Shown here one piece after another: positions 18,189 to 63,331 of a stretch of 64,000 nt of DNA. The DNA is taken from assembly GCA_013334435.1 (NCBI GenBank), contig JAAXXP010000001.1:24892-88891 (forward strand), in the 5' to 3' direction. The stretch's first letter is position 1; each line of letters opens with the position of its first letter. The notes beneath the pieces are model-generated. The model saw only the letters and a list, made by a program, of their open reading frames with translations. It made no database searches and was not told the DNA's origin. The DNA comes from Chlorobiaceae bacterium. GTDB lineage: Bacteria; Bacteroidota; Chlorobiia; Chlorobiales; Chlorobiaceae. Both the position numbers and the translations under genes were made by a program.

Positions 18189-18247
18189 GGCGTAAAAAAG
18201 CGGAGTTGAGTAAACCGGGACCCCTCTACAGGCTTCTTATGAGAAAA

Positions 18248-18409
18248 TTATTTTACCGCCGTGCCCATTTCGCAGCTTACGGAAAGACGATGACGGCCTT
18301 TCGCCCTTCTTGAAGCAAGAACCCTGCGGCCGTTTTTCGTGGCCATCCTCTGTCTGAATCCGTGCTTGTTCCTTCTTTTTCTATTGCTAGGCTGAAATGT
18401 TCTTTTCAT
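18248..18409 (-). CDS. rpmH: 50S ribosomal protein L34
   Basis: Manual translation: [53 protein letters not shown] (53 aa, below the ORF-track cutoff). Canonical L34 N-terminus. Confidence 0.93.
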
Positions 18410-18851: not shown

Positions 18852-20327
18852 ATGCCCGAAACAATCACAAAAGTACAAACCGGAGTCCCCATCAATAAGC
18901 ACCTGAAAAGCGCTTCTTTAGAGCATCAGGTGTGGTCGTCATGCCTCGACACAATAAAGGACAAAATCAATCCCCTCGCGTTCAAAACCTGGTTTCTTCC
19001 CATAAAGCCCGTCGGTTTTTCCGGCAATGAGCTGACCATCGAGGTTCCCAGCCAGTTCTTTTACGAATGGATCGAGGAAAACTACTCCTCCTATCTGAAA
19101 CAGACGCTGAAGGAGGTCATCGGTCCCGAAGCGAAGCTCATGTACTCGATTGTCATGGATAAATCCCAGGGACAGCCGGTTACCATAGAGCTGCCTCACC
19201 AGAACAGCCTGTCCGACGAATGTCTTCCTGAAAAACAGGAAAAACCATGCAATGCGGCAAACCAGCAGGATTTCCAGCGCAATCTCATGCGTTTCGAAAC
19301 GCATCTGAACACGAAATACACCTTTGAAACGCTCATCAGGGGAGACTGCAATTCCCTGGCTTTTGCCGCCTCGAAATCCATCGCACAGAATCCCGGACAG
19401 AACGCCTTCAATCCCCTGGTGATATACGGCGGTGTCGGACTCGGCAAAACCCACATGATCCAGGCCATAGGAAACAGTGTTCGGGCCAACTGCCTCTCCG
19501 AAAAGGTACTGTATGTTTCAAGCGAAAAATTTGCCATCGATTTCGTCAACGCCATCCAGAACGGCAAAATCCAGGAATTCTCCTCGTTTTACCGCACCAT
19601 CGACGTTCTGATCATCGACGACATCCAGTTCTTTGCCGGCAAGGAGAAAACCCAGGAAGAAATTTTTCACATCTTCAACACCCTGCATCAGTCCAACAAG
19701 CAGATCATCCTCTCTGCGGACCGCCCCATAAAAGAGATCAAGGGCATTGAAGATCGTCTGATATCACGGTTCAACTGGGGACTTTCCGCCGATATTCAGC
19801 CGCCGGACTACGAAACGAGAAAAGCCATCATTCTCAGCAAGCTGCATCAGAGCGGCGTCAATCTTGACGATACCGTCATTGAATTCATAGCCACCAATGT
19901 TACCGAAAACGTCCGGGAGCTCGAGGGGTGCATCGTCAAACTGCTCGCCGCCCAGTCGCTGGACAATCAGGAAATCGATCTGCAGTTCACCAAATCCACC
20001 CTGAAGGACATCATCAGGCATACAACCAAGCAGCTGACGCTCGACACCATTGAAAAAGCGGTCTGCTCGTTCTACAGCATCACCCCGAACGATCTCAAGG
20101 GAAAATCAAAGAAGAAAGAGATCGCCGCCGGCCGGCAGATGGCCATGTATCTCGGAAAACTTCTTACGGATTCTTCACTTAAAACCATCGGCCTGCATTT
20201 TGGCGGACGCGATCATTCGACGGTCATTCATGCTCTCAATACCATAGAGAAGCGGGTCGAAGGTGTCGGAGACGAAAGAAAAAAAATCGAGGAACTGAAA
20301 AAGAGGATCGAGATACTCTCGATGTAA
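18852..20327 (+). CDS. dnaA: Chromosomal replication initiator DnaA
   Basis: 491 aa with Walker [11 protein letters not shown], an AAA+ core, and a C-terminal DNA-binding region ([11 protein letters not shown]). Confidence 0.97.
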
Positions 20328-20615
20328 GACAGGAATCCGCCCTGTGCACTACCTGTTGATTCGGTGTGGGTGCACTGTTGATAACAGGCGGGTTGCCAAC
20401 AGTGCGGTACGGCGAAAAAAATGAACCAACAATCGGCCAACAGCGCACCCCTCCGGCAACAAACAGGTTATCAACAGTCCGGAAGTGTGTGGAAAATTTT
20501 TTAACCTCCTGTATAAGAACGGGTTATTGTGAATTCCGTATGGGTTGTCAAGATTTCCACACTTACAACAATAACAACAATTTTTTTAAACATTATTAAA
20601 TAGTTAAAGAGTACG
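20328..20615. other. Second DnaA-box cluster plus AT-rich stretch in the dnaA-dnaN spacer
   Basis: TGTTGATTC at 20354, TGTTGATAA at 20376, TTATCAACA at 20468, TGTGGAAAA at 20488, ATTTCCACA at 20553. AT-rich at 20561-20612. Confidence 0.6.
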
Positions 20616-21743
20616 ATGATGCAATTTTCCTCAACCATAAGGCAGATGCAGGATGCGGTCAGTAAGGTGTCGCAGGCCATTCCGGCAAAAACCATCGATC
20701 CGCGCTATGACAACGTTCACCTGACCCTTGAAAACGGTCTGCTTACCCTGTTTGCCACAGACGGTGAACTTGCCATTACCGCAAAGTGCCCCGTAGAGAC
20801 TTCCGACACCGGAAACATCGGTATCAAGGCTAAAACCCTTCAGGATTTTCTCCGGAGCATGTACGATACCCCGGTCAGTTTTACCATCAACCGTCAGGAA
20901 ATAAGCGATCACGGTACGGTTTCCATTTCCACTGACAAGGGGCATTATAAAATCCCCTGTCTTTTCGAAAGCAAACCGGAAAAAACCGAAAAAACGTATG
21001 CAATAACGCTCGAACTGAAAACCGAGGAGCTCCAGGATCTTATTCAGAAAACCATTTTCGCCTGCAGTGTGGATGGAATGAGGCCGGCCATGATGGGTGT
21101 GCTTTTCGAGATCGAAGAGAACAGTATCACCGGAGTTTCAACTGACGGTCACCGGCTTGTCCGGTGCAGAAAGCCCATTACCGCGGAGATAGCGGAAAAG
21201 CAGAAAATCGTCGTTCCGGCCCGGGTACTCTCGATTATCCAGAAGCTTGCCCAGAACGACAGCGTTACCATGTCCATCGACGAAGACCGCCGTTCGGTAT
21301 GCTACAGCTGCGACAACGTCGTGCTTGAAGCCGCTCTTATCGTAGAGCCTTACCCTAACTACGAAGCGGTCATTCCTGTTGAGCACGACAAAAAGCTTGT
21401 TGCCCAGAGAACGGACATTTATGATTCGGTCCGGAGAGTCGGGCGTTTTTCAAGTATCGGAGATATCAAGATCGACGTCAACGGTGCGACGCTGAAAATA
21501 ATGGCTGAAAACACCAACGAAGGAGAATCCGCACAGGAGGAACTGACCTGCAATTATACAGGAGAACCTATTACAATCGGTTTCAACGCGAAATTCATTG
21601 AAGCCGCCCTTGCTCATATCGACCAGAGCGAAATCATCATAGAACTGAAAAGTCCAACGACGGCGGTCATTTTCAAGCCCGGTGCAGCAAAGGAGCAGGA
21701 AGAGCTGATTATACTGGTGATGCCGGTTCGCATCAATAATTGA
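20616..21743 (+). CDS. dnaN: DNA polymerase III beta sliding clamp
   Basis: 375 aa with the three-domain clamp pattern. Located downstream of dnaA. Confidence 0.95.
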
Positions 21744-21759
21744 GCGAAGAGGCAGGTTA

Positions 21760-22851
21760 TTGAAACTCGAACAGATACAGTTCGTCCATTTCAGGAATCA
21801 CGGTTCCCTGACCTTTGCTCCTTCCGGAGGTATCAACCTCATTTATGGTCCGAACGGTTCAGGGAAAACCTCGATTCTCGAAGGAATACATTACTGTGCG
21901 CTGACGAAGGGTTTCGTCAGCGCTTACGACATCGAGTGTCTGAAAGAGGGCCATCTTTTTTTTGTGCTCAAGGGCAGGTTTGCAAGTGAAAGCGGCACAG
22001 AAACAGAGGTAAAAGTCTCCTACAGCCGTCAGGCCGGCAAACAGCTGACGGTCAACACCCTGAATCTCGCGTCTTTTTCATCGCACATAGGTGCGATTCC
22101 CTGTATTACCTTTTCACCCTCCGAACTCTCGATTATAACCGGATCCCCTGCGGAGCGAAGGCGTTTTCTCGATAACGCGATCTGTCAGACCAACCGGAGG
22201 TATCTTGATGCCCTTCTCAGCTACCGGAGAATCCTGCAACAGCGTAATGCACTTCTGTTCCGGATAAGAGAGCATCGGTCGGGTATGGAGATGCTCGACA
22301 TTCTCACCGAACAGCTGGCAGAGCACGCAGTCTGCATCGTACGATCGAGAATGCAGTTCATAAGGGAGATTATGCCGGTAGCTGAAGCACATCTCGTAGC
22401 GGTTTCAGCCGGAGAAACGCCACGAATTGCCTATCGCTGTTCATTTCTTCCGCATGACTGCACCGAATCGTCCGATCAGCTTTCCAGGCTCTTTGAGGAG
22501 AGGATACGGGAAAAACGGCAGGAAGAGATCGCAAGGGCGCAGACGGCAATCGGACCGCACAGGGATGACCTGTTGTTTTTTCTTAATGAAAAAGAGGTTA
22601 AGAGATACGCATCGCAGGGTCAGAAAAGAAGTTTTCTCATTACCCTTAAACTTGCTCTCTATCGATATTTTCTTGAAAAACTCGATGAACAGCCTATCTG
22701 TCTTTTCGACGATCTGTTCAGTGAACTCGATCGCGAAAGGGTGGACAGCCTTCTCCTGCTGCTTTCCGGTTTCGGCCAAACCATCATTACGACGACGGAA
22801 AAAAGGAATACGCCGGGTGTTTCGGCACTCAATATTTGTGAAATAGCATGA
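21760..22851 (+). CDS. recF: DNA replication/repair protein RecF
   Basis: 363 aa, TTG start, Walker A GPNGSGKTSILE, signature SQGQKRS, and DDLFSELD. Confidence 0.93.
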   Translation: MKLEQIQFVHFRNHGSLTFAPSGGINLIYGPNGSGKTSILEGIHYCALTKGFVSAYDIECLKEGHLFFVLKGRFASESGTETEVKVSYSRQAGKQLTVNTLNLASFSSHIGAIPCITFSPSELSIITGSPAERRRFLDNAICQTNRRYLDALLSYRRILQQRNALLFRIREHRSGMEMLDILTEQLAEHAVCIVRSRMQFIREIMPVAEAHLVAVSAGETPRIAYRCSFLPHDCTESSDQLSRLFEERIREKRQEEIARAQTAIGPHRDDLLFFLNEKEVKRYASQGQKRSFLITLKLALYRYFLEKLDEQPICLFDDLFSELDRERVDSLLLLLSGFGQTIITTTEKRNTPGVSALNICEIA

Positions 22852-23156
22852 CAGGCGGTTTCAAAAAGACAAGAAAGGCTCCCAGACGGATTTCACTGAT
22901 TGTCGAGGAGGTTTTCAGCGGGCTCGGCATGGATGATGCGCGCGAGCAATACCGGGCGCTCCATCTCTGGAGGGAGATCGTCGGTGAAACCATAGCGGCC
23001 GAGACGGTAGTAGAAAGGCTCTCGGATGGACAGCTTTTCATACGGGTGAAAAATTCGGTGTGGAGAATGGAGCTGAACTTCCGCAAGAAGGAACTTGCCG
23101 GAAAAATCAACAGTTTCCTTGGCAAGGAAGCGGTAAGGGAGATTGTTTTCAGATAA
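22848..23156 (+). CDS. DUF721 (DciA-family) protein
   Basis: 102 aa. LHLWREIVGETIAAETVVERLSDGQLFIRVKNSVWRMEL fits the DUF721 pattern. 4-nt overlap with recF, which is the usual position for this family. Confidence 0.75.
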   Translation: MTGGFKKTRKAPRRISLIVEEVFSGLGMDDAREQYRALHLWREIVGETIAAETVVERLSDGQLFIRVKNSVWRMELNFRKKELAGKINSFLGKEAVREIVFR

Positions 23157-24518: not shown

Positions 24519-26939
24519 TTAAAAAGCGGTATCGCTGCTGAACGGGTCGGGTGACGTATTTCTCGTTTCACGTATCAGTTCGATTCCTTCGGGAGAAAAG
24601 GCGAAAAGGGTATCCGCCGAGAAAATCGTGCTGAAATCCTGCGGTTTGAAAAAGGGAAGGAATTTCTGGCAGTGCTCGTCGAGCCTTTTCAGGTAAAAAG
24701 CGGTGTTTTCATCGGGTTTACGAGGGTCCCAGTCAGAAGCAAGTCGGCCTTTATCGAAAAATGAGGATGCATTTCCCGAGCCTGATATATAATAGGTTAT
24801 ACGGTCTCCTTTCGAAAATTCCCCACCGGATTTAATGACCAGTTCGTAGGTAACCGATCTGGAGCGTCTGCCTGAACGTACATCCTCAAGATACTGTTCC
24901 GGAGAGGATTTCAGGGTTTCTATCCTTGAAAAATCCCCAATGTCGAGCTGATGGTCAAGAATCTTCTGGCGGTACTCCATGAAGAGATCGTGGAGTCCGG
25001 CAATATCCTCTGACAGCAGCGTTTCAAACCCTTTCCTGACGAAATCACGGCCGAATTTCTCTCCGCTCCTGCTTGACAGTGAAGAGCCTTTGAGGGTCAT
25101 GACATTGTCGTAACCCATGAGGGCATAGTTTTTTTTCAGGTAGGAGATCATTTTCCTGAACCTGCCGTCAAAGCCGATATTGATGCCTTCCGGCATCCTG
25201 GAGGATACTTCGCTCACCAGACGCCGCTCCTCTTCTTCATTCGTTATGTCCGGAGGTGGGATAAAAAGAATTCCGTCGGTATCGACTTCAATGACACGGC
25301 ATCCCCGAGCTTCGAATTCGGCAATCATCTTTCTGGCAATACTCTGTCCTGTCGATGTTACCCTGTCCGCTTCTGCGAAATCATTGAAAATTCCTCCCTG
25401 GAAACCGAGATAGCCGTACATGGCGTTGATGAGGATCTTGAACGATCCCTGCATGGCGTCGAAGTTTCCGGCCAGAGCATTGTTTTTTTTCTCCCTGTTC
25501 TCCCTGCTGAGGTCTTTTGCCCTGAAACGGAGATCTCTCAGATCGCGCAGTACGCCGGGAAAAACCTTCAGGGTATCGCTTCCCGGACAGATATCGTAAG
25601 AGAGCATGATGGATGGATAGAGAGACTCCACATCCGCATAGACAATGGGTCCGAGTACGCCTTTCAGAAAAACCTCCGTATAGCCTCCCGTAAACTGCTG
25701 TCCGGAAGATGGTTTGGGAAGTGAATGCTTCCGGTTGAGGTACTCGCGTACGAACAGTGCTTCTATTTTGGCTGCAGGTCCAAGACGCGAGGTCATGGCA
25801 TAGGTGTAGGGAAGCATCTGCGCGGTGTAGAAGTTGCTGCCGGAGAGCATCTCCGACAATGCTCCGGTTTCGATGACATCGTCAAGCGCATAGGCCAGCA
25901 GCTTTTCATGGTCGTTATCCCATGTCGATGCGATATCCTTGTAGTCAATATAGGTACGTTCAGGAGCCGCAAAACCGAAATGTCTGGCGACAGCCTTCAG
26001 CCCGTAGCTCTGGAGCGAGCGCTTTGACGTGTCGTAGCTCTGGATAAGGAACAGTGTATCGACGACATGGCGTCCGGGGATGTCGAAGAACGGAAAATCA
26101 ATGGTTCGTTCCGCGAAGCGGATGCTCGAAGGATATGTTTTAGGCTGCAGCCCGTCCCGGCCTATCGAAAATGCGAGGCCGTGCCGTTCGCAGCGGCGCT
26201 GCAGATAGGGCAGATCGAAGCTGAATATGTTATGGCCTTCAATAACATCAGGATCTTTAAGGGTTATCGTTCTGATCGTTCGATCGAGCAGTTCCTTTTC
26301 CGAACTGTTTTTTGAGTGCAGCACCTCTTTCCATCCTCGATTGTCGGAAAGCGAAACAATGATTATTTCATCCGAAAATCGGTCGTTCTCCTCACCGCCG
26401 CGTTTTTCAGGCCTGTAATACGTTTCAATATCGAGCTGAAGACGATGAAGGTTTTCAAACAGCATTCCCTTGAAAAGGGTTTTTCCGGTTTGCAGAAAAT
26501 ACTGGGTAACGGCGTCGCCTTTACTGTAGGTAAGGGAGCTTCCTTCCTCCGCAGGGCTTTCGGCGCTTCCGGAAAGAAGCGAGAGCTTTTTTGAATTGAT
26601 GAAATCAAGAGCCGCCCTGAAGGTTTTCCAGCTTCCGAAAATTGCGAGATACTGATAGAAATTGTCGCCCTGCAGATTGACCAGCCAGAATTTCCTCTTG
26701 TCCTCCGGAATGAATCCGTCAAGCACGGCGCTTTCGGAAAGAAAAAAGAATGGATAAAAAGGGTCGTCGCGATAAAGAACGGTATTCCCATTACGGAAAA
26801 ATATTCTGATATGCGTATCGGAAAGCTGATAGGCTCCGACTATGCACTCCTCCTTGTCTTTACCGAAAAGAAGATTGTTGTCGAGAATGTCATGAATGAA
26901 ATTGTCCATGAACATGCCGGGTGAAAATGAATGAAGCAT
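24519..26939 (-). CDS. polB: Family B DNA polymerase (Pol II-like) with intact 3-5 exonuclease
   Basis: 806 aa. Exo I LQLDIETY, Exo [14 protein letters not shown], Exo [11 protein letters not shown]. Pol [11 protein letters not shown], Pol [13 protein letters not shown], Pol [10 protein letters not shown]. Confidence 0.9.
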
Positions 26940-29173: not shown

Positions 29174-29217
29174 TTGCATCGGGCTCTGTTTTTTTATATA
29201 ATTATATAGTTATATAA
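29174..29217 (+). promoter_or_regulatory. Sigma70-like promoter of soyYZ-fccAB with overlapping 24-bp palindromic operator
   Basis: TTGCAT (29174-29179), a 17-nt spacer, then TATAAT (29197-29202). Operator TTATATAAT-tatata-GTTATATAA at 29194-29217. Confidence 0.65.
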
Positions 29218-29278: not shown

Positions 29279-29716
29279 ATGAAGAGACGAACCTTTCTGG
29301 AGCGCAGTTCCGTTGCTGCCGCGCTTGTTCTGTTGCGGCCTTCCTCGCTTATGGCGGCATGGAACGAAAAACATTTTCAGCAGGTTTCCATCGATAAAGC
29401 GTTCCTTGACGTTCTCGGTACGAAAGACCTTGTCAAATCCGGCAGCATCACCATTGCGGCCCCTCCGGTTGCGTCCGACAGCTCTGCGGTTCCGGTTGAA
29501 ATCATCTCCGGAATCAGGGGCGATCAGCTCTATCTCTTCGTGGAAAGGAACGTTACGCCACTTGTCCTCAGCTGTGCCCTTCATGGCGGCGCTATCCCAT
29601 TTCTTGCTCTTACGGTCAAGATGAGGGAGAGTTCGCTGCTTTACGCCGTTATCAGGGAAGGCGGGAAATACCATATGGCCTCGGTGCATGTCGATGTAGC
29701 GGTTCAGGCCTGCTGA
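29279..29716 (+). CDS. soyY: SoxY-like sulfur carrier protein (SoyY of green sulfur bacteria)
   Basis: 145 aa with Tat signal MKRRTFLERSSVAAALVLL and a SoxY-like fold pattern. The C-terminus ends ...VAVQAC. Located immediately upstream of a SoxZ-like gene and fccAB. Confidence 0.75.
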   Translation: MKRRTFLERSSVAAALVLLRPSSLMAAWNEKHFQQVSIDKAFLDVLGTKDLVKSGSITIAAPPVASDSSAVPVEIISGIRGDQLYLFVERNVTPLVLSCALHGGAIPFLALTVKMRESSLLYAVIREGGKYHMASVHVDVAVQAC

Positions 29717-29741
29717 AATCACGTCCACAACATATGTCAAC

Positions 29742-30044
29742 GTGTTTATGAGAATACTCGCGAAAGAGGACGGGGGGATTGTCTCGCTCAAAGTCATCAT
29801 TCCGCATCCGAACGAATCGGGTACGAGAAAGGACGAGTCGGGAAACGTTGTTCCTGCCTATTACATCAGGGAAGGCTCTGTTTTGCTGAACGGTCTGCCG
29901 CTTATCGAGCTGCAGCTTGGCCCTTCGGTTTCCAGGGACCCTTTTCTGCAGTTCAGGTTTGCCGGTAAAAAAGGAGACCGGCTCAATTTGCGGTTCATCG
30001 ACAGCAGGAAGCAGGAATATGCCGCCGAAGCTGCGGTTGTCTGA
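29742..30044 (+). CDS. soyZ: SoxZ-like protein (SoyZ)
   Basis: 100 aa with the SoxZ-type pattern (KVIIPHPNESG...PAYYI). Paired with soyY. Confidence 0.75.
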   Translation: MFMRILAKEDGGIVSLKVIIPHPNESGTRKDESGNVVPAYYIREGSVLLNGLPLIELQLGPSVSRDPFLQFRFAGKKGDRLNLRFIDSRKQEYAAEAAVV

Positions 30045-30125
30045 TTCTCCGGCTGGATGACGTCAGGGTTACAAAGGTGTTATGTGCGCTTCTCTTTCTT
30101 AACAATCAACCAGGAGAAACATATT

Positions 30126-30482
30126 ATGCAGGTTACTATCAGATCGTTGCTGACGACCTGTTTCGTCTTTTCAGCTCTGCTTGGTGCTGGGGCTGAAGCT
30201 ACAGCGGCAACAACGCCGGCTCAGAAAGAGGTCGAATCGAACCCCCGGGGGCAGATTCTTTCTCTTTCCTGCTCTTCCTGTCACGGTACTGACGGAAAAA
30301 GCGCGGGAGTCATCCCCTCGTTTTACGGGAAGTCGCCCGAGTACCTTGAGACCGCATTGAAGGATTTCAAGACAGGCAAGCGGTATTCAACCGTTATGGG
30401 CAGGCATGCCAAAGGGTATACCGACGAAGAGATCCATTTGATTGCGCAGTATTTCGGAACGGTCTGGCAGAACAACAAATAA
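30126..30482 (+). CDS. fccA: Flavocytochrome c sulfide dehydrogenase, monoheme cytochrome c subunit
   Basis: Signal peptide, a single CSSCHG heme site, and RBS AGGAGA 9 nt upstream. Start moved from 30057. Confidence 0.85.
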
Positions 30483-30497
30483 GGGGGAGATGCAAAT

Positions 30498-31790
30498 ATG
30501 AGCCATAAAATTTCACGCAGGGATTTCAACAAGCTCCTGGTAACGGGAGTCGCCGGTTCCGCCCTCGGTATTTTCGGTACCATAAAGCCGGCATTTGCCG
30601 CACAGAAAAGGGTTGTCATTATCGGTGGCGGTTTTGGCGGTGCTTCGGCTGCCAAATACCTCAGGAAACTGGACCCTTCGATTGCCGTTACGCTTGTCGA
30701 GCCGAAAGCGACCTTCTATACCTGCCCGTTCAGCAACTGGGTGCTGGGAGGTCTGAGAACCATGGCCGATATCGGACAGACCTACACTGCCCTGAAAAGC
30801 AGGCACGGCGTCAATGTTCTGGTCGATTCCGCTACAGGTATCGATGCGGCCAAAGCTACGGTAACCCTGAAAAGTGGCAAGGTGCTTCATTACGACCGCC
30901 TCATCGTTTCACCCGGCATCGACTTCAAATGGAGTGCCATCGAAGGTTATAGCGAGGCTCTTTCGCGCACGAAAATGCCGCATGCCTATGAGGCCGGTTC
31001 CCAGACCATTCTCCTGCACAAACAGCTGCTTGCAATGAAAAACGGCGGCAGGGTCATTATCTGTCCTCCGGGCAACCCGTTCAGATGTCCTCCGGGACCC
31101 TACGAGAGGGCAAGCCTCATTGCTCATTACCTGAAAGCGAAGAAGCCGAAATCGAAAATTCTCATTCTCGATGCCAAAGAAAAGTTCTCCAAGCAGGGGC
31201 TTTTCAAGAAAGGATGGGATACGCTGTATCCCGGCATGATCGAATGGCGTTCAGGCCCGACCGGCGGAAAGGTTACGAAAGTTGACGCTGCTTCCATGAG
31301 CGTAACAACCGATTTCGGAGTGGAAAAGGGTGATGTCATCAATGTCATTCCTCCCCAGCAGGCAGGAAAGATCGCCTTCAAAGCCGGTCTGACCGATGCC
31401 TCCGGATGGTGTCCGGTCAATCCAAGCACCTTTGAATCGACGATTCATCCCGGTATTCATGTTATTGGCGACGCCTGTATCGCCGGCGCCATGCCGAAAT
31501 CGGGTTTTGCCGCCAGCAGTCAGGGCAAGGTTGCTGCCGCTTCGATCATCAGGCTGTTCCAGGGCAAGGAGCCTGCACCGCCCTCTCTGGTCAATACCTG
31601 CTACAGTCTGATCGGAACCGATTACGGTATTTCCGTTGCCGGAGTTTACAGTCTCAGCCCTACCGGCATTATCGAGGTTCCCGGATCCGGAGGACTTACA
31701 CCGATGGATGCCGATGCCGATCATCTCCGCGAGGAGGCGATGTTCGCTGAAGGCTGGTACAGGAACATTGCTCAGGACATCTGGGGATAA
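30498..31790 (+). CDS. fccB: Flavocytochrome c sulfide dehydrogenase, FAD-binding subunit
   Basis: 430 aa with Tat signal [10 protein letters not shown] and FAD fold [17 protein letters not shown]. Confidence 0.9.
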
Positions 31791-53698: not shown

Positions 53699-53722
53699 AT
53701 GTATAACTATATATTTATATAG
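53699..53722 (+). promoter_or_regulatory. Degenerate copy of the 24-bp palindromic operator, upstream of the FadL-type OMP gene
   Basis: ATGTATAAC-tatata-TTTATATAG, with 3 mismatches to TTATATAAY-N6-RTTATATAA. Located 160 nt upstream of the ATG at 53882. Confidence 0.45.
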
Positions 53723-53881: not shown

Positions 53882-55309
53882 ATGCATCAAAAAACAATTA
53901 GCGGGATGACGCTTCTGGCGCTCCTGTCAGCCACATCCACAGCTTTTGCCACGAACGGCATGAACCTCGAAGGGTACGGCGCGAAATCCCATGCGCTCGG
54001 CGGGACAAGCACGGCCTACGATACCGGGAATTCAGGGGTCACGAACAACCCGGCAACCCTTGGCCTGAGACAGGAGGGTTCTTCGGAACTCGGAGTCGGG
54101 ATCCGCGGCCTTCATCCGGACGTAAACCTTCAGACGCCGGGCATGATGGCCGGATCGGACGGGGACGCATATTACATGCCATCGCTCTCCTATATGCGCA
54201 AAGACGGAAAAATAACCTGGGGGTTTGCCGTTCTCGCTCAGGGTGGAATGGGTACGGAGTACGGCGAAAATTCCCCGATTTTCAGCAGAGGGAATTCCAT
54301 GGGGGGCAATCCAGGGGTTCCCCTGAGCGGTCAGGATATCCGCTCCGAGGTGGGAGTGGGACGCCTGATGTTTCCTGTGGCATATAACCTTACGGAAAAT
54401 ACCGTCATCGGAGCATCTCTGGATTTTCTCTGGGCGAGCATGGATCTGCGGATGGATATGGACGGAGCGCATTTCGGAGCCATGGCCATGCAGGGCCGAG
54501 GCGGTTCTGTGGGAGGATCGATGTTCAGTACGCTTGGCGGAATGATCGGTTCGGGTATGGTGAGCGATATCGACTATGTCCGCTACGACTTCTCCAACGA
54601 CAGTCCCTTTCTTGGTGACGCGACAGGTTACGGCACCGGGTTCAAGGTGGGTTTTACCCACCGGTTCAGCAAACTGCTTACGGTGGGAGGCAGCTATCAC
54701 TCGCAGACACGGATCTCCGATCTCGAAACCTCGAACGCCGTGCTCTCTTTTTCCGGAACAGGTGATGCGTTCAGCATGGCCAATCCCGTTTCGGTGAAAG
54801 GCACCATCAAGGTCCGCAATTTCGAGTGGCCGGCCACGTTCGCCGCGGGCGTAGCCCTCTACCCTGCAGAACGGTGGATGATTTCCGCCGACGTCAAGCA
54901 CATCGACTGGTCGTCGGTAATGGAGAAATTTTCAACGACCTTTATAGCCGACAACTCCGTTTCCAACGGGCCATTTGCCGGGCAGAAGCTCGATGTGGAG
55001 ATGCTGCAGAACTGGAAGGATCAGACGGTTTTTTCAGTTGGCGTTCAGTACAGGGCAACAGACAGGCTTGCTCTCAGGGGCGGTGCGAGTTTCGCTTCGA
55101 ACCCCGTACCCGATGCATGGCTCAATCCACTGTTTCCGGCCATCACCGAAAACCATTATACCGCCGGATTCGGCTACAGGGTTTCCGATCGCGCTTCGGT
55201 TTCGGCGGCCCTGGCCTGGGCTCCGGAGGTTACCCGAACAAATGCCGACGGTCTTGAAATCAGTCACGGCCAGCTCAACTGGTCACTGAATTATGCGCAT
55301 GAGCTGTAG
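53882..55309 (+). CDS. Outer-membrane transport protein, OMPP1/FadL/TodX family
   Basis: 475 aa with a signal peptide ending AFA, N-terminal NLEGYGAKSHALGGTSTAY typical of the FadL hatch region, and beta-strand periodicity throughout. Confidence 0.8.
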   Translation: MHQKTISGMTLLALLSATSTAFATNGMNLEGYGAKSHALGGTSTAYDTGNSGVTNNPATLGLRQEGSSELGVGIRGLHPDVNLQTPGMMAGSDGDAYYMPSLSYMRKDGKITWGFAVLAQGGMGTEYGENSPIFSRGNSMGGNPGVPLSGQDIRSEVGVGRLMFPVAYNLTENTVIGASLDFLWASMDLRMDMDGAHFGAMAMQGRGGSVGGSMFSTLGGMIGSGMVSDIDYVRYDFSNDSPFLGDATGYGTGFKVGFTHRFSKLLTVGGSYHSQTRISDLETSNAVLSFSGTGDAFSMANPVSVKGTIKVRNFEWPATFAAGVALYPAERWMISADVKHIDWSSVMEKFSTTFIADNSVSNGPFAGQKLDVEMLQNWKDQTVFSVGVQYRATDRLALRGGASFASNPVPDAWLNPLFPAITENHYTAGFGYRVSDRASVSAALAWAPEVTRTNADGLEISHGQLNWSLNYAHEL

Positions 55310-55375: not shown

Positions 55376-55582
55376 ATGGACTGCCGACACCCGGAGAACC
55401 TCGCCCGATGCAACTGCACCTGCGAACCGTGTCCCCGCAAGGGGATCTGCTGCGAGTGCATTGCCTATCACCGCTCGAAAGAGCAGCTTCCGGCATGCTG
55501 TTTCAGCCCGGAGGCGGAAAAAACATGGGATCGGAGCATCGTGAAGTTCATTGAAGACAGCCAGCGGAAAGTGCGCCCATGA
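55376..55582 (+). CDS. Small Cys-rich protein (9 Cys in 68 aa), function unknown
   Basis: [43 protein letters not shown]... I believe this matches a conserved uncharacterised family (DUF6485-like), but that is from memory only. No clear RBS. Confidence 0.5.
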
Positions 55583-55621: not shown

Positions 55622-55834
55622 TCAGTTTTCGTCGAGCGTAAAACCGATTTTTACGGTAACCTGCCAGTAGGCGACTTTCTGGTTCTCGACGTGACAGCGG
55701 GTTTCGACAATTTCGACCCAGCGGATATTTCTTACCGATTCAGCGGCTTTTGCGACGGCATTTTTCACTGCATCCTCGATGCTGGTTTCCGAAGATCCGA
55801 CGATTTCAATTTTTTTATAGATATGAGCGCTCAT
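55622..55834 (-). CDS. Dodecin-family flavin-binding protein
   Basis: MSAHIYKKIEIVGSSETSIEDAVKNAV...WQVTVKIGFTL, the canonical dodecin pattern. The ORF maximum start at 55852 is also possible. Confidence 0.85.
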   Translation of the reverse strand: MSAHIYKKIEIVGSSETSIEDAVKNAVAKAAESVRNIRWVEIVETRCHVENQKVAYWQVTVKIGFTLDEN

Positions 55835-56070
55835 GGCTTGCGTGTTTTTCATGGTTGGTGATCCAGTCGTGCGGCTGCACTGCGTTATGCATTGACCCGC
55901 GTCAAGAAAGGAAAATAGGCTTCATCGGCGAAAAAAATCCCTTCCTGGGCTTTTTTTTTGAAAAACGGCACCCGAAGCTTCTCCGGAAGCAAGGGTTAAG
56001 TCATTGTTTGAAATGGGGGTAGTTGGTATAAGGGTCGTAATAAAAAAAGTTCCTGAAACACAGATTTAAT

Positions 56071-56127
56071 TTGGGAGTATGGGTACTGTGTATTATTATA
56101 TAACCATTCAGTTATATAATAATACAC
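56071..56127 (+). promoter_or_regulatory. Sigma70-like promoter with a perfect 40-bp palindromic operator, upstream of the Mo-oxidoreductase operon
   Basis: TTGGGA (56071-56076), a 17-nt spacer, then TATTAT (56094-56099). Palindrome GTGTATTATTATATAAC-cattca-GTTATATAATAATACAC at 56088-56127. Confidence 0.65.
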
Positions 56128-56376: not shown

Positions 56377-56502
56377 ATGTACGGGAGCGTATGCATGCCT
56401 TGCTGCATTACCACCCCGACCCTGATTTTTCAGAAGGCAGGGCTGCCTGCGGATGGGCCTGCCGGGTGGGTTCTCTCTCAATCAGACCAGATCAGTTCAT
56501 GA
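56377..56502 (+). CDS. Candidate 41-aa Cys/Met-rich small ORF, translationally coupled to psrBC
   Basis: RBS AAGAGGAGAAGG at 56362-56373. ATG 56377. Translation MYGSVCMPCCITTPTLIFQKAGLPADGPAGWVLSQSDQISS. Its TGA overlaps the ATG of the next gene (ATGA at 56499-56502). Confidence 0.45.
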   Translation: MYGSVCMPCCITTPTLIFQKAGLPADGPAGWVLSQSDQISS

Positions 56503-58052
56503 ACTACGGCTTTGTTATCGATGCCCGGAAATGTATCGGATGCCATGCATGCACGGTTGCCTGCAAGTCCGAAAACGAGGTTCCTCTCGGAGTGAACCGT
56601 ACCTGGGTGAAATATGTGGAAAAGGGCGCCTTCCCCGATACCCGGCGCTACTTTACCGTTTTGCGCTGCAACCACTGCGCCGAGCCGCCATGTGTGGCTA
56701 TCTGTCCTGTCGAGGCGCTGCAGAAACGTCCGGACGGCATCGTGGATTTCGACAGCCGCCGCTGCATAGGATGCAAGGCATGCGCCCAGGCCTGCCCTTA
56801 CAATGCGCTCTATATCGATCCCGATACCCATACCTCGGCAAAGTGCAACTACTGCGCCCATCGCAGGGAGGTTGGCCTCCAGCCGGCCTGCGTGGCGGTC
56901 TGTCCGCAGCAGGCAATCGTTTCGGGCGATCTCGATGATCCCTCAAGCAAAATCGCCACGCTGGTTGCCTGCGAACGTACCGTCGTGCGCAAGCCCGAGA
57001 AGGGGACTTCGCCCAAGCTGTTCTATATCAATGGCGACGGTGCGTCGCTCGATCCCATGGAGGCTCCCCTGCAGGAGGAATACCACTGGAGCGCCCAGTC
57101 GAGAGGCGTGGGTCATTTTGCCGGAAAGGGAAAAAGCGCACCGGGAATCGAAAAACCCGCCCATGCATCCGCCACGGCCGGCCCGAAAGCCCGCCGCGTT
57201 TATGATATTCCGTCGAAAGGCGCAGTCTGGGGCTGGGAGGTTCCGGCATATGTGACGGCCAAGGCGGTCTCGTCCGGAGTGTTTCTTGTTTTTGCCGCCC
57301 TGCTCGCCGTTTTCCGCATGGAGCTTGCCCCAACCCTGCAGTGGTCGGCCTGGGCGGTTTCGCTGCTTTTTCTGGCCCTTACCGGAGGCTTTCTCATCAA
57401 GGATCTCGATCGTCCCGACCGCTTTTCGTCGGTGATGCTGCGTCCGCAGTTCGGCTCATGGCTTGTCAGGGGCGGGCTTACCATTACCGGTTACGGTGCG
57501 TTTCTCGCCCTGTGGGGAGTATCGCATCTCCTGCAGATTCCCGCACTTGAAACCGCCGCGCTCTGGGGCGGCGCGCTTTTCGCCCTGGTGACGGCCATCT
57601 ATACGGCGTTTCTGTTCGGCGCCGCAAAAGGGCGCGATTTCTGGCAGAGCCCCATGCTGCTGCTGCATATGCTTCTGAACTCCCTGCTTGCCGGCGGCTC
57701 GGCCATGCTCCTGCTCGGGCTCGGCGCCGGAAGCCCGTCGGAACTTCTCGGGCTGCTCCGTCAGCTGCTGACGGCAGGCTTCGGGCTGCATATCGTCATC
57801 ATGCTGCTCGAACTGTACGGACAGCACCCTTCCGCAGGGGCTGAGCGCGCGGCGGAAATCATCCGTGAGGGGAGCCTGAAGAACCAGTTCTGGGCAGGCA
57901 GTTTTCTTGGCGGCAACCTGCTGCCCCTTCTCGTTACGCTTTTTTCATCCGATCCGCTGATGCTTGCCGCAGCGGCCCTTCTGGGACTGTGCGGTGTGTT
58001 CTACACGGAAAAAGTCTGGGTTCAGGCCCCGCAGAGAATTCCCTTAAGTTAA
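56499..58052 (+). CDS. Fused 4x[4Fe-4S] ferredoxin (PsrB/NrfC-like) plus NrfD/PsrC-like membrane anchor
   Basis: N-terminal Cys clusters CIGCHACTVAC, CNHCAEPPC, CIGCKACAQAC and CNYCAHR...CVAVCP. The C-terminal roughly 330 aa has about 8 hydrophobic helices. Start set at MNYGFVIDARKC (ORF maximum 56391). Confidence 0.85.
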   Translation: MNYGFVIDARKCIGCHACTVACKSENEVPLGVNRTWVKYVEKGAFPDTRRYFTVLRCNHCAEPPCVAICPVEALQKRPDGIVDFDSRRCIGCKACAQACPYNALYIDPDTHTSAKCNYCAHRREVGLQPACVAVCPQQAIVSGDLDDPSSKIATLVACERTVVRKPEKGTSPKLFYINGDGASLDPMEAPLQEEYHWSAQSRGVGHFAGKGKSAPGIEKPAHASATAGPKARRVYDIPSKGAVWGWEVPAYVTAKAVSSGVFLVFAALLAVFRMELAPTLQWSAWAVSLLFLALTGGFLIKDLDRPDRFSSVMLRPQFGSWLVRGGLTITGYGAFLALWGVSHLLQIPALETAALWGGALFALVTAIYTAFLFGAAKGRDFWQSPMLLLHMLLNSLLAGGSAMLLLGLGAGSPSELLGLLRQLLTAGFGLHIVIMLLELYGQHPSAGAERAAEIIREGSLKNQFWAGSFLGGNLLPLLVTLFSSDPLMLAAAALLGLCGVFYTEKVWVQAPQRIPLS

Positions 58053-58071
58053 CCATGTGCCGGAGTTTACC

Positions 58072-60933
58072 ATGAGCTATACCCATAAACCGACAGTCAT
58101 AGAGTCCATTGCTGAAAAGCTCCACCTTGTTCCCGATCTGCACCGGGAGGACGATGGCCCCAGGGCGCTTCGGGCCGCAGAAGAGGGCGCCGAGATAAGC
58201 TGCCCGCCTCCCGCACAGTGGGACAACTGGGTCGAATACGACTCGAAAAGCTGGCCCGAACGCAAGACGAAAGAGTACATGCTGGTGCCGACCGCCTGTT
58301 TCAACTGCGAAGCGGGGTGCGGACTTCTCGCCTATGTCGACAAGGAGACCATGGAGATCCGCAAACTGACCGGCAACCCCTATCATCCGGCCAGCCGCGG
58401 CAGGAACTGCGCCAAGGGCCCGGCAACGCTCAACCAGATTCAGGATACCGACAGGGTGCTCTATCCCATGAAACGCGCAGGAAAGCGAGGCGACGGCAAA
58501 TGGGAACGGGTCAGCTGGGACAGCGTCCTCGACGATATCGCCGGACGGATGCGCAAGGCAATCATGGAGGGCCGCAACAACGAAATCTCCTACCATGTAG
58601 GACGTCCGGGACACGACGGGTTCATGGAGTGGGTGCTGCGGGCGTGGAACGTAGACGGCCACAACAGCCATACCAACGTCTGCTCTTCGGGAGCGCGTTT
58701 CGGTTACGCCATATGGGAAGGGTTCGACCGTCCCTCTCCCGATCATGCCAACGCGAAATTCATTCTTCTGGTCAGCGCCCATCTTGAATCGGGCCACTAT
58801 TTCAACCCGCATTCCCAGCGCATCATCGAGGCCCGCATGAAAGGTGCGAAGCTGGCCGTGCTCGACCCCAGGCTTTCCAATACCGCAAGCATGTCCGATT
58901 ACTGGATGCCGAGCTATCCAGGCAGCGAGCCGGCCATCCTGCTCGCCATGGCGAAGGTGATCATCGACGAAGGGCTCTACAACCGGACCTATCTGGAAAA
59001 CTGGGTGAACTGGCAGGAGTATCTCCAGGCGGAATATCCCGGAACCCCGGTGACCTTCGAAAATTTCATCGAGGCGCTGAAAAAGGAGTACGCCCACTAC
59101 ACCCCCGAATACGCTTCGAAAGAGAGCGGCGTGGACGCATCCATGATCGTCGAGGTCGCCCGCAGGATCGGCGAGGCGGGCTCGCAGTTCTCCACCCATG
59201 TCTGGCGCAGCGCCAGCAGCGGCAATCTCGGCGGCTGGGCCGTGTCGCGCACGCTGCACTTTCTGAACGTGCTGACCGGCAGCGTCGGAACGCCTGGAGG
59301 CACCTCTCCGAGCGCATGGAACAAGTTCAAGCCTCATGTGCATGCCGAACCCAAACCGCAGACCTTCTGGAATCCGCTCCATCTGCCCGACGAATATCCG
59401 CTCGCGCACTTCGAGATGAGTTTCCTGCTCCCCCATTTCCTCAAGGAGGGACGGGGCAAGCTCGATGTTTATTTCACCAGGGTGTTCAACCCGGTATGGA
59501 CCTATCCCGACGGCTTCTCGTGGATCGAGGCGCTGGAGGACGAATCGAAAATCGGCCTGCACGCCGCGCTCACGCCAACGTGGAGCGAGACCGCCTATTT
59601 TGCCGACTATGTGCTGCCGATGGGCCACTCGGCCGAACGGCACGACCTGCTCAGCTACGAAACCCACGCAGGCAAATGGCTCGCTTTCCGCCAGCCGGTG
59701 CTGCGCACTGCCCTGAGAAGAATGGGCAAACCGGTGACCCACACCTGGGAGGCCAACCCCGGCGAAGTCTGGGAAGAGGATGAATTCTGGATCGAACTGA
59801 CCTGGCGCATCGACCCCGACGGCAGCCTCGGCATCCGCCAGTACTGCATGTCTCCCTACAGGCCGGGAGAGAAAATAACCATCGATGAGTATTACCGCTA
59901 TATCTTCGAGCATACGGCAGGCCTTCCGGAGAAGGCGGCAGCCGAAGGGCTCACTCCGTTCGACTACATGCAGAAATACGGTGCGTTCGAGGTCGAAAGC
60001 AACGTCTACAACGTGAACGAAAAAGCCGTGCCTCAGGCCGATCTCGACGGCGCTTCGGTGGAGCCGCAGAGCGGGCTGATCGTCAAGAACGGCAAGGCCG
60101 TGGGCGTGGAGGTTGCCGGTCGTTCCTGTACCGGGTTTCCCACCCCTTCGAAAAAGCAGGAGTTCTACTCCGGCACCATGGTCGACTGGAAGTGGCCGGA
60201 ATACCGCCTGCCGGGCTACATCAGGAGCCACATCCATGAGGAGACCATGGACCACAAAAACGGAGAGTTCGTGCTGGTGCCGACCTTCCGCCTGCCGGTA
60301 CTGATCCACTCCCGCTCGGGCAACGCCAAATGGCTTGCCGAAATCGCCCACCGCAATCCCGTCTGGATCAACGCTACCGACGGAGCGGCGCTCGGCATCG
60401 CCAACGGCGACCTGATCAGGGTGAACACCGACATCGGCTTTTTCGTGAACCGCGCCTGGGTGACCGAAGGGATACGTCCGGGAGTGGTCGCCTGTTCCCA
60501 CCACATCGGACGGTGGCGCCGCGAACAGGACCCCGAAGGCAACCGCTGGGCCGCCAACAAGGTCAACATCTCCAGAGAGGGGGACGGCAAATGGAAGATG
60601 CGCGTCGAAGAGAACATCCAGCCATACGAGAGCAGCGATGCAGACTCGTCGAGAATTTTCTGGTCTGACGGCGGCGTTCATCAGAACATCACCTTCCCGG
60701 TGCACCCCGACCCGATCAGCGGCATGCACTGCTGGCATCAGAAGGTGCGCATCGAGAAGGCGCACGATGACGACCGGTATGGCGACGTGTTTGTCGATAC
60801 CGACCGTTCATTCCAGATTTACAGGGAGTGGCTCGCCATGACGAGGCCGGCTCCCGGTCCCGGCGGCCTGCGCCGTCCGCTCTGGCTCAACCGCCCGTTC
60901 AGGCCCGACGAGAAAACCTACTATATCGCCTAG
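58072..60933 (+). CDS. Molybdopterin (bis-MGD) oxidoreductase catalytic subunit, PsrA-like, without Tat signal
   Basis: About 953 aa with N-terminal Fe-S motif CFNCEAGCG...C and the Mo-oxidoreductase pattern throughout. No RRxF signal peptide. GGAG 6 nt upstream of ATG 58072; the ORF track starts at GTG 58057. Confidence 0.88.
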   Translation: MSYTHKPTVIESIAEKLHLVPDLHREDDGPRALRAAEEGAEISCPPPAQWDNWVEYDSKSWPERKTKEYMLVPTACFNCEAGCGLLAYVDKETMEIRKLTGNPYHPASRGRNCAKGPATLNQIQDTDRVLYPMKRAGKRGDGKWERVSWDSVLDDIAGRMRKAIMEGRNNEISYHVGRPGHDGFMEWVLRAWNVDGHNSHTNVCSSGARFGYAIWEGFDRPSPDHANAKFILLVSAHLESGHYFNPHSQRIIEARMKGAKLAVLDPRLSNTASMSDYWMPSYPGSEPAILLAMAKVIIDEGLYNRTYLENWVNWQEYLQAEYPGTPVTFENFIEALKKEYAHYTPEYASKESGVDASMIVEVARRIGEAGSQFSTHVWRSASSGNLGGWAVSRTLHFLNVLTGSVGTPGGTSPSAWNKFKPHVHAEPKPQTFWNPLHLPDEYPLAHFEMSFLLPHFLKEGRGKLDVYFTRVFNPVWTYPDGFSWIEALEDESKIGLHAALTPTWSETAYFADYVLPMGHSAERHDLLSYETHAGKWLAFRQPVLRTALRRMGKPVTHTWEANPGEVWEEDEFWIELTWRIDPDGSLGIRQYCMSPYRPGEKITIDEYYRYIFEHTAGLPEKAAAEGLTPFDYMQKYGAFEVESNVYNVNEKAVPQADLDGASVEPQSGLIVKNGKAVGVEVAGRSCTGFPTPSKKQEFYSGTMVDWKWPEYRLPGYIRSHIHEETMDHKNGEFVLVPTFRLPVLIHSRSGNAKWLAEIAHRNPVWINATDGAALGIANGDLIRVNTDIGFFVNRAWVTEGIRPGVVACSHHIGRWRREQDPEGNRWAANKVNISREGDGKWKMRVEENIQPYESSDADSSRIFWSDGGVHQNITFPVHPDPISGMHCWHQKVRIEKAHDDDRYGDVFVDTDRSFQIYREWLAMTRPAPGPGGLRRPLWLNRPFRPDEKTYYIA

Positions 60934-61032: not shown

Positions 61033-61989
61033 ATGACAAGAGTGGACGGTAAAAAAATCTGGTGGTTCCTTGCAGCCGTTCTGCTGACAGCCATGCCGCT
61101 TGTCCTTGCTCCGGAAGCCGCAGCCGCATCGTTACCGGCAGGCGGCGAAACCTCATGGTGGATCTGGGTACTGCTGCTTTTCATCTTTTCATTTTTTCTC
61201 GGCATAGTTTCCGTTCTTGCCGGCGTGGGCGGCGGGGTGCTTTTTGTGCCTATTGTCAGCAGCTTCTTTCCTTTCCATCTCGATTTCGTTCGCGGTGCCG
61301 GGCTCCTGGTCGCGCTTTCCGGCGCTCTTTCGGCAGGCCCCTCACTGCTGAGAAAAGGGCTTGCCGATCTGAAGCTCAGCCTTCCGCTCTCCCTTATTGG
61401 ATCCATCAGCTCCGTTGCAGGAGCGATTGTCGGACTCAGGATGTCCGCCGACAGTGTGCAGCTTTTGCTTGGCATAGCGATCATCGCCATTGCGGTGATC
61501 ATGATGAAAGCCGGAAAATCCGGTTATCCTGAAGTCGGAGAGTCCGATGTGATCGCCAGGGCACTGGGCATTTCCGGCAGCTATTATGAACCGACTATCG
61601 ACAAAACCATCAACTGGAAGGTGCATCGGACGCCTCTGGGGCTGGTGCTCTTTTTCTTTATCGGTTTTATCGGGGGCATGTTCGGCATGGGCGCCGGCTG
61701 GGCCAACGTGCCGGTGCTCAATCTCCTCATGGGAGCGCCCCTCAAGATTGCCGTTGCGACAAGTGGGCTGGTTCTCTCGATGAACGGCGCGGCAGCTGCA
61801 TGGATCTATATCTATAAAGGAGCCGTTCTTCCCCTGATCGCAGTTCCCGCAGTCGGCGGCGTGATGCTCGGTTCGAAGATCGGTGCCAGAATTCTCTCGA
61901 AAGTCAACACCGGTTCGGTTCGCATCATTGTGATCATCATGATGGTCATTGCCGGTCTTCGTTCAATAACAAAAGGATTGGGATTATGA
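61033..61989 (+). CDS. TauE/SafE (DUF81) family anion exporter, sulfite-exporter-like
   Basis: 318 aa with about 8 TM segments in two homologous halves carrying Gly-rich motifs (GVGGGVLFVP and GMGAGWANVP). Confidence 0.8.
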   Translation: MTRVDGKKIWWFLAAVLLTAMPLVLAPEAAAASLPAGGETSWWIWVLLLFIFSFFLGIVSVLAGVGGGVLFVPIVSSFFPFHLDFVRGAGLLVALSGALSAGPSLLRKGLADLKLSLPLSLIGSISSVAGAIVGLRMSADSVQLLLGIAIIAIAVIMMKAGKSGYPEVGESDVIARALGISGSYYEPTIDKTINWKVHRTPLGLVLFFFIGFIGGMFGMGAGWANVPVLNLLMGAPLKIAVATSGLVLSMNGAAAAWIYIYKGAVLPLIAVPAVGGVMLGSKIGARILSKVNTGSVRIIVIIMMVIAGLRSITKGLGL

Positions 61990-62405
61990 GCAACACAGAC
62001 GGTCAGCATAAACCTGAGATCGACAGGGCGCAGCTTGTCTATGCCGCCGTTCTCGACGTCGTTTCGCATACCGGTATGGTGCTGATCGCCGCAGGTTTTC
62101 TCTCCTATGTTTTAAGGCTGCTGCCGCTTACGGTTTCCGTCGAAGCGGTCGCCTCCCACTGGCATCTCAGGGCAAGTGAAATGAATCACGTCCTTTCGGT
62201 GCCCTCAGGCTGGTCATGGGTGCAGGATCCCCTGCACGGAGATGTACTCAGCTTCATATCAATTATCTTTCTTTCGATGGCGGCCATGATCTGTCTTGTT
62301 GCCGTCATTCCTGTTTTTTTCGCCGGGAAGAACAGGAGTTATGCCCTCATTGCCCTGCTTCAGGTTCTTGTGCTTGTCGCTGCCGTTGTCGGCATAGCTT
62401 CCTGA
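61986..62405 (+). CDS. Small 3-4 TM membrane protein, DUF1634-like partner of TauE
   Basis: 139 aa with an ATGA overlap with the TauE stop. The DUF81-DUF1634 pairing is a common arrangement. Family is assigned mainly by context. Confidence 0.5.
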   Translation: MSNTDGQHKPEIDRAQLVYAAVLDVVSHTGMVLIAAGFLSYVLRLLPLTVSVEAVASHWHLRASEMNHVLSVPSGWSWVQDPLHGDVLSFISIIFLSMAAMICLVAVIPVFFAGKNRSYALIALLQVLVLVAAVVGIAS

Positions 62406-62447: not shown

Positions 62448-62499
62448 TTGTTTCTTTCCTCGCTATTATTTATAATTATATAATTGTCTGGTTATATAG
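62448..62499 (+). promoter_or_regulatory. Sigma70-like promoter of the tusA operon with adjoining 24-bp palindromic operator
   Basis: TTGTTT (62448-62453), a 17-nt spacer, then TATAAT (62471-62476). Operator TTATATAAT-tgtctg-GTTATATAG at 62476-62499. Confidence 0.65.
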
Positions 62500-62568
62500 T
62501 TTTATTTGTTGCGGCAATATCGCAACCGCTTACCCCGAAACAACATACTTAACTTCAAGGAGGCATCA

Positions 62569-62805
62569 ATGTCTGAAATAACTGCCAACCGTACGCTCGA
62601 TTGCTCCGGGATGAACTGCCCGCTGCCGATCCTGAAGACCAAGAAAGAGGTCGATCAGATGCAGAGCGGTGAAATTCTGAAAATGATCTCGACGGATTCC
62701 GGTTCGGCAAACGACATGACTTCGTGGGCGAACAGAACGGGACACAAAATCGTCGGCAGCAGCACCGAAGGCGGAACCTATACTTTCTACATCCAGAAAT
62801 CCTGA
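62569..62805 (+). CDS. tusA: TusA/SirA-family sulfur carrier protein
   Basis: 78 aa. LDCSGMNCPLPILKTKK (CPxP active site). RBS AAGGAGG 6 nt upstream. The ORF track starts earlier, at 62506. Confidence 0.88.
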   Translation: MSEITANRTLDCSGMNCPLPILKTKKEVDQMQSGEILKMISTDSGSANDMTSWANRTGHKIVGSSTEGGTYTFYIQKS

Positions 62806-62821
62806 CCGGGAGAAAACCACT

Positions 62822-63331
62822 ATGGCCGACACAAAAAAACTTGCCATCATCGCCTCCAAAGGCACGCTCGACTGGGCCTATCCTCCATTCATCCTCGCTT
62901 CGGCGGCGGCGGCCATGGATATGGAAGCGGTGCTCTTTTTTACCTTTTACGGTCTTCCGCTGCTGAAAAAAGAGATCGATCTCAAGGTCACTCCTGTCGG
63001 CAATCCGGCAATGCCGATGAAAATGCCGTTCGGCAGCAAGGAGTTCCAGGGCTTCGACTGGCCCATTCCCAATATCATTTCCGGCAACGTTCCCGGATTC
63101 GACACCATGGCCACCATGCTCATGAAGGAAACCTTCAAGAAGAAAGGTGTGGCCACCATCGAGCAGCTTCGCGAGATGTGCCAGGAGAGCGGCGTCCGCT
63201 TCATCGCCTGCCAGATGACCATGGATGTTTTCGGTTTCGAACGCAAGGATTTCATTGACGGCGTCGAGTACGGCGGTGCGGCAATGTTTCTTGAGTACGC
63301 CGCCGATGCGAACATGTCCCTGTTTATCTGA
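62822..63331 (+). CDS. DsrE/DsrF-like family protein (DsrE2/DsrE3-type, DrsE_2-like)
   Basis: 169 aa. KLAIIASKGTLDWAYPPFILASAAAAMDMEAVLFFTFYG and the conserved-Cys region RFIACQMTMDVFG. Located directly downstream of tusA. Confidence 0.75.
   Translation: MADTKKLAIIASKGTLDWAYPPFILASAAAAMDMEAVLFFTFYGLPLLKKEIDLKVTPVGNPAMPMKMPFGSKEFQGFDWPIPNIISGNVPGFDTMATMLMKETFKKKGVATIEQLREMCQESGVRFIACQMTMDVFGFERKDFIDGVEYGGAAMFLEYAADANMSLFI

Follow-up and report, generated by a model that had tools for sequence, protein, structure and literature searches.

The element closest to the one analysed here is PSOS-2, the putative sulfide operator sequence 2 of Chlorobiaceae (Hilzinger et al. 2017, 10.1101/172254; AEM 2018). 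It emerged from footprinting of the sox, dsrC, dsbE and CT2231-CT2230 (FadL-type porin) promoters of Chlorobiaceae, in which it lies across the -6/-10 box and +1. The C. tepidum genes that carry it are expressed at a lower level on sulfide than on S0 or thiosulfate, and the element has neither a match in motif databases nor a known binding protein (10.1101/172254). Repression at the -10 in a sulfur context is the mode of the persulfide sensors BigR, SqrR and YgaV, all of the ArsR superfamily; in the case of SqrR, sulfide induces the target genes (PMC5595413). In Hyphomicrobium denitrificans the ArsR-type repressors SoxR and sHdrR act on sox, shdr and tusA-type genes; when thiosulfate is present, sulfane sulfur releases these repressors (PMC12423496), and under such a logic the targets would be strongly expressed on thiosulfate or S0.

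The DNA analysed, referred to below as the window, is the whole stretch of 64,000 nucleotides from a Chlorobiaceae bacterium; since its DsrE2 shares 96% identity with a protein bearing the name of Chlorobium limicola, the organism is close to that species. It carries a palindrome at the promoter of an operon for a complex of the PSRLC3 type. Two-gene complexes of this type are described in green sulfur bacteria as an alternative sulfite-oxidising system (PMC5473276, PMC6338057), and as the operon is of this two-gene type it is not an orthologue of C. tepidum psrABC. Judged from its sequence and position, the palindrome is indeed an operator of the repressor type, set on the promoter of a sulfite-oxidation operon in a green sulfur bacterium, and probably the strongest one of a Chlorobiaceae-wide sulfur regulon.

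The palindrome at the PSRLC3 promoter

The positions of the palindrome, of its promoter and of the related sites and genes are collected in Table 1. On rereading the sequence, the perfect palindrome reported in the preliminary description was recovered in full: GTGTATTATTATATAAC (56088-56104) is followed by cattca (56105-56110) and GTTATATAATAATACAC (56111-56127), and the arms pair with 0 mismatches. The sigma-70-like promoter that had been read around it was returned, with the same hexamers and spacer, by an independent consensus scan, and transcription of the operon is predicted to start near 56106. As a correction, the first gene does not start at 56391; the conserved ATG is that at 56498 (MNYG...), and the predicted leader is therefore about 390 nt long.

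Table 1. Features of the window discussed in the text (positions are those of the window)
Feature	Position	Strand	Details	Basis
Perfect palindrome, predicted operator at the PSRLC3 promoter	56088-56127		40 bp, 17-6-17 (17-bp arms, 6-bp spacer)	sequence, fold
Conserved core	56096-56119		24 bp, TTATATAA-CCATTCAG-TTATATAA (box, 8 nt, box)	pattern search, footprint, box phasing
-35 hexamer	56071-56076	+	TTGGGA; TTGsGAG kept in 7 genomes	consensus scan, footprint
-10 hexamer	56094-56099	+	TATTAT, 17-nt spacer, 4-nt overlap with left box	consensus scan, footprint
Leader stem-loop	56304-56421	+	very stable; closed by GGUCGGGGUGG/CCACCCCGACC, then CUGAUUUUU	
Fused PsrB (4Fe-4S)/PsrC (NrfD) subunit of PSRLC3	56498-58052	+	true start 56498	Pfam, start-codon conservation
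Molybdopterin (PsrA-like) subunit of PSRLC3	58057-60933	+		Pfam
TauE-family permease; membrane protein	61033-62405	+	permease 61033-61989; 139-aa membrane protein 61986-62405	Pfam
soyY site	29194-29217		three tandem boxes, TTATATAA-TTATATAG-TTATATAA; -10 TATAAT (29197-29202) within box 1	
soyY, soyZ, fccA, fccB	29279-31790	+		
Predicted tusA operator	62476-62499		TTATATAATTGTCTGGTTATATAG; abuts TATAAT 62471-62476; TTGTTT 62448-62453, 17-nt spacer	promoter read by eye
tusA, dsrE2	62566-63331	+	tusA 62566-62805, dsrE2 62822-63331	
Degenerate three-box site	53699-53722		ATGTATAA-CTATATAT-TTATATAG	
FadL/TodX-type outer-membrane protein	53882-55309	+	same family as CT2230	
Cys-rich DUF6485 ORF	55376-55582	+	68 aa, 10 cysteines; directly 3' of the porin gene	

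Phylogenetic footprinting had been proposed earlier as a check, and the orthologous PSRLC3 promoters of seven Chlorobiaceae do keep the elements in question: the -35 (as TTGsGAG), the -10 and the core are the sole invariant blocks, while the flanks diverge. The G and the C at fixed flanks are also invariant. The outer arms of the palindrome are conserved only in the window and the L001 lineage.

Distribution of the motif in Chlorobiaceae

The window was searched for the core pattern TTATATAAC-N6-GTTATATAA with up to 3 mismatches. It matched at 29194 (1 mismatch), 56096 (0) and 62476 (2), against an expectation of 0.01; the degenerate core at 53699 has 4 mismatches. With a weight matrix at a score of at least 22 there were 4 matches in the window, compared with 0.015 in shuffles that keep the local composition, so that all the recurrences listed in the preliminary description were found again. 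Their setting in front of sulfur-related genes held as well: each of the four sites lies on a predicted promoter, and Pfam identifies SoxY/SoxZ with FccAB, TusA with DsrE2, PSRLC3 with TauE, and a FadL/TodX porin as the products of the genes that follow. Within the 64 kb the motif is found only at sulfur genes, a weak match at 50880 before a redoxin gene being unconvincing as a site. The DUF6485 ORF comes directly after the FadL-type porin gene and is therefore probably under the same operator.

Elsewhere in the Chlorobi the motif was found 5' of dsrC (L015, L090-92 of the C. limicola lineage, L093 of Chlorobaculum, L006 and L008), of rhd (L093), of tusA/dsrE2 (L001, L003, L013, L015 and L212), of soyY (L094-96) and, in addition to the site at 53699 of the window, of a CT2230-type FadL porin gene in L006 (8140-8179). 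There was no clear site at dsrC in L004, none at the CT2230-type porin promoters of L004 and L015, and none in the tauE-dsrE2-sat loci of Chlorobaculum (L084-87); in low-GC Chlorobium species the sites are rearranged or weak. The weight matrix gave 21 matches in 344 kb of Chlorobi loci, a figure that is partly circular in that 11 of them are its training set. Occurrence at comparable density in arbitrary AT-rich intergenic DNA of the genome had been named as an observation that would count against an operator. In PSRLC3-like loci from outside the Chlorobi (Bacteroidota-type), which amount to 1.07 Mb and are in many cases AT-rich, the matrix gave 0 matches. The suggestion of a repressor-type operator over the -10 agrees with these data, the element being kept in other Chlorobiaceae and common to four sulfur promoters of the window. 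In the C. limicola lineage (L090-L092) the dsrC promoter is duplicated together with its operator, the two copies (9671-9694 and 9862-9885) lying about 190 bp apart.

The motif shares with PSOS-2 its presence in dsrC promoters and in CT2230-type porin promoters and its overlap with the predicted -10 and +1. Because both target genes and position match, the motif of the window is very probably PSOS-2. The PSOS-2 preprint does not name PSRLC3, tusA-dsrE2 or soyYZ-fccAB as members, and describes neither the 8-bp box phasing nor the ArsR link that are added here. The motif class is thus one already reported and still an orphan, whereas these three members, the phasing and the ArsR lead are new. 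A second type of element was seen nearby in some loci: a perfect palindrome, TAACAATTGTTA, stands 5' of an NMT1-type ABC transporter beside a box site (L081-L083, about 11410-11425), and TTAACGATTGTTAA is present in the porin promoter of L015 (about 7950). Both are similar to the CRP-like motif described by Hilzinger et al. (10.1101/172254), which is absent from the 64-kb window.

Arrangement of the boxes

If divided in register, the sites resolve into arrays of self-complementary 8-bp boxes, YTATATAR; alternatively the operator can be read as TATAAC-N6-GTTATA. Pairs of good boxes are separated by 8 bp (19 pairs), 16 bp (15 pairs) or 24 bp (2 pairs) and almost never by other distances, the 16-bp class, though not the 8-bp class, being in part a matter of construction. 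The porin site of L006 extends over five registers. The SqrR box, ATTC-N8-GAAT, is unlike these boxes. In form the sites recall the metbox arrays of MetJ, whose operators consist of 2 to 5 self-complementary boxes of 8 bp in tandem and follow the logic of a co-repressor; their sequence (AGACGTCT) is unrelated and no ribbon-helix-helix gene was seen here, so that the likeness is one of analogy only.

Counted from the first base of the -10, the start of the operator shifts between promoters over a range of -6 to +5, and the predicted transcription start is always covered. Such a variable offset speaks against a fixed promoter element and fits a repressor. With the operator beginning a few bases at most from the -10 and extending over the predicted start, a protein bound to it would block RNA polymerase.

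ArsR-family genes beside the same pattern

The preliminary description had noted no gene for a BigR/SqrR-type regulator in the window. Neither Pfam scans nor an ArsR profile search of the window gave an ArsR protein or a plausible sulfur regulator; the only candidates for DNA-binding regulators were MraZ, a ROK protein and DnaA. Extending the ArsR profile from the window to the other Chlorobi loci examined gave no ArsR-like ORF (all E > 2), and the small ORFs near dsr (L090), considered as possible regulators, do not look DNA-binding.

Metagenome contigs were then scanned for TTATATAAYNNNNNNGTTATATAR, which occurs in at least 120 loci; among the matches listed, one contig (L212) is from Chlorobi and 30 are of high G+C content (about 0.55 or more). 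The latter were used since an AT-only pattern is not expected there by chance. In 27 of these 30 high-GC contigs among the matches listed, the pattern stands directly 5' of an ArsR-family gene. The site is within 37 bp of each of the 27 genes, whose products of about 112 aa score E 1e-20 to 1e-60 against a profile built from eight such neighbours; the neighbours tested with Pfam are all HTH_5, the ArsR family (8 of 8). The layout is TTGACA, about 11 nt, GTTATATAAC-N6-GTTATATAAC, about 10 nt and the ATG, and the genes after the regulator are for proteins of the AHSA1/SRPBCC and glyoxalase types. The ArsR-AHSA1/SRPBCC gene pair is also present on annotated plasmids of Burkholderia and Roseibium, where related variants of the box stand 5' of the regulator gene, and a Sinorhizobium plasmid has, in an unannotated stretch, a homologue with another box variant. 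The 27 cases indicate, therefore, that the pattern is the auto-operator of one ArsR clade. No description of the operator GTTATATAAC-N6-GTTATATAAC was found in the searchable literature. Rv2034, an ArsR protein whose gene stands next to an AHSA1 gene, was considered as a match and set aside, its operator being different.

The auto-operators of the ArsR-AHSA1 operons share with the sites described here the identical 24-bp TTATATAAY-N6-GTTATATAR and its place just 3' of the -35 and over the -10. The operons themselves differ: theirs have an adjacent regulator gene, AHSA1 or glyoxalase cargo and boxes 16 bp apart, whereas the Chlorobi sites have no adjacent regulator, sulfur genes as cargo and arrays at 8 bp also. 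In the Pfam map of the window no operator is directly followed by a regulator gene and then AHSA1. Relatives of the clade use other box variants (L220, L221). The protein that binds the Chlorobi sites may belong to the ArsR-AHSA1 clade or share its recognition helix.

Nature of the binding protein

Taken together, we put at about 0.65 the probability that the palindrome belongs to a conserved operator of sulfur oxidation, very probably PSOS-2, which is bound by a dimer of the ArsR/SmtB family encoded elsewhere in the genome. The preliminary description had proposed more specifically a persulfide-sensing ArsR repressor of the BigR/SqrR type, and here the family and the subtype fare differently. 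For the ArsR family as such there is now indirect support, as the pattern adjoins ArsR genes in 27 of the 30 high-GC contigs. A BigR/SqrR protein, from which a persulfide bridging two cysteines would release the DNA so that sulfide induces, is decidedly improbable. The AT-rich palindrome on the -10 and the TauE permease in the operon, of a kind typical of BigR operons, would suit it, and so would the family assignment from the metagenome contigs and the control of sox, shdr and tusA genes by ArsR-type SoxR/sHdrR in Hyphomicrobium (PMC12423496). The ArsR proteins beside the exact pattern are far from this group, however: the nearest solved structure to their profile is 3F6O (E 1.5e-27, compared with 2.7e-8 for BigR, 3PQJ, and 4e-7 for SqrR, 6O8L), they have no invariant cysteine and no conserved Cys pair, and they head AHSA1/SRPBCC and not sulfur operons. 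Further, PSOS-2 genes go down and not up on sulfide (10.1101/172254), the opposite of the SqrR response (PMC5595413), and no gene of the BigR/SqrR type lies in or beside any locus examined.

MetJ and TrpR bind in tandem, MetJ on tandem metboxes, and the strict 8/16-bp phasing, with sites of two or three adjacent boxes, recalls such binding. The boxes might thus be occupied by a non-ArsR protein that assembles on phased 8-bp repeats (ribbon-helix-helix and MetJ-like, or a TrpR-like co-repressor system), with sulfide or a derivative as co-repressor, a model with which repression in the presence of sulfide also agrees. This is nevertheless unlikely, given that no such gene was found, that the exact pattern serves as ArsR operator elsewhere and that the inner flanks, conserved as AAC/GTT, are what a single inverted repeat would show. 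The TATAAT or TATTAT hexamers within or beside the boxes could also suggest that the repeats are simply promoter sequence, in the form of overlapping -10-like hexamers or an UP-like element, or else that a nucleoid protein binds them and no dedicated regulator exists; the invariant G and C at the fixed flanks, the shift of 11 bp in register against the -35/-10 between promoters, the restriction to sulfur genes in the 64 kb and the lack of matches in the AT-rich control loci make this very improbable. Finally, the palindrome could act through its structure, as a cruciform, an RNA hairpin or a terminator. It does fold stably as single-stranded DNA (17 pairs, -12.8 kcal/mol, z = -6.4), and yet covariation between the arms is absent (85.7% of cells paired, 85.0% in shuffles, one compensatory pair), which indicates that selection acts on sequence and not on structure. 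A T-run is lacking, the predicted transcription start falls inside the palindrome, and the outer arms are kept only in the window and the L001 lineage. The structural reading, which is hardly credible on this evidence, was rejected. A search of the window and the leader against Rfam returned only a tRNA and a miRNA match on the palindrome, the latter spurious.

Possible mechanism and significance

If an ArsR/SmtB-family protein is indeed the binder, it would most likely be a winged-helix dimer with a recognition helix like (S/T)QPA(I/V)S(R/K)HL(K/R)VL, encoded elsewhere in the genome. The dimer, possibly in higher-order arrays, would sit on the boxes over the -10 and +1 and exclude RNA polymerase from a putative regulon for the oxidation of stored sulfur, sulfite and thiosulfate (dsr, PSRLC3-tauE, tusA/dsrE2/rhd, soyYZ-fccAB and the FadL-type porin). 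The expression data for C. tepidum would imply that the boxes are largely occupied with sulfide and largely free on S0 or thiosulfate. Sulfide or a derivative could be a co-repressor; alternatively, cytoplasmic sulfane sulfur could release the repressor, as with Hyphomicrobium SoxR (PMC12423496), while sulfide would keep the sensor reduced.

A bolder proposal, which we regard as tentative and rather doubtful, is that green sulfur bacteria have recruited an ArsR repressor with the DNA specificity of the 3F6O/AHSA1 type, encoded away from its targets, as master switch between the oxidation of sulfide and that of stored sulfur and sulfite; it would act on phased 8-bp arrays and be DNA-bound with sulfide, the reverse of SqrR/BigR. 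Green sulfur bacteria oxidise sulfide first and sulfur globules later, and their genomes encode few regulators; we know of no regulator behind the switch from sulfide to globules. The palindrome offers a perfect bait, of apparently high affinity, for this missing regulator, and its match to operators of the ArsR type reduces the search to a single small family of proteins. The putative regulon now also takes in the presumed sulfite oxidase PSRLC3, the TusA/DsrE2 sulfur relay and soyYZ-fccAB. Outside the Chlorobi, the widespread ArsR-AHSA1 clade of soil bacteria (L099-L218, high-GC contigs) gains a candidate consensus operator.

Leader and neighbouring features

The PSRLC3 leader contains a stem-loop of -66.6 kcal/mol (z = -5.6) with an 11-bp GC closing stem, which may be an attenuator and has no Rfam match. 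Its 3' arm, CCGACCCTGAT, is kept in L001, L010 and L012, and L002 and L015 have short leaders; the aligned leaders are only 54% identical. A dodecin gene (55622-55852, minus strand) is divergent from the PSRLC3 promoter, as it also is in L001, L002, L010-12 and L015.

A further pair of adjacent boxes, accompanied by a TATAAT, occurs in the same genome about 9.5 kb beyond the end of the window (L083, 19569-19592), in an intergenic gap between convergent genes. GC-rich hairpins come next, with no sizeable ORF and no Rfam match, and this may be a small RNA under control of the operator. At 15659-23156 and 24519-26939 the window also holds an origin-type cluster (rnpA, yidD, yidC / dnaA, dnaN, recF, DciA) and a gene for a family-B DNA polymerase.
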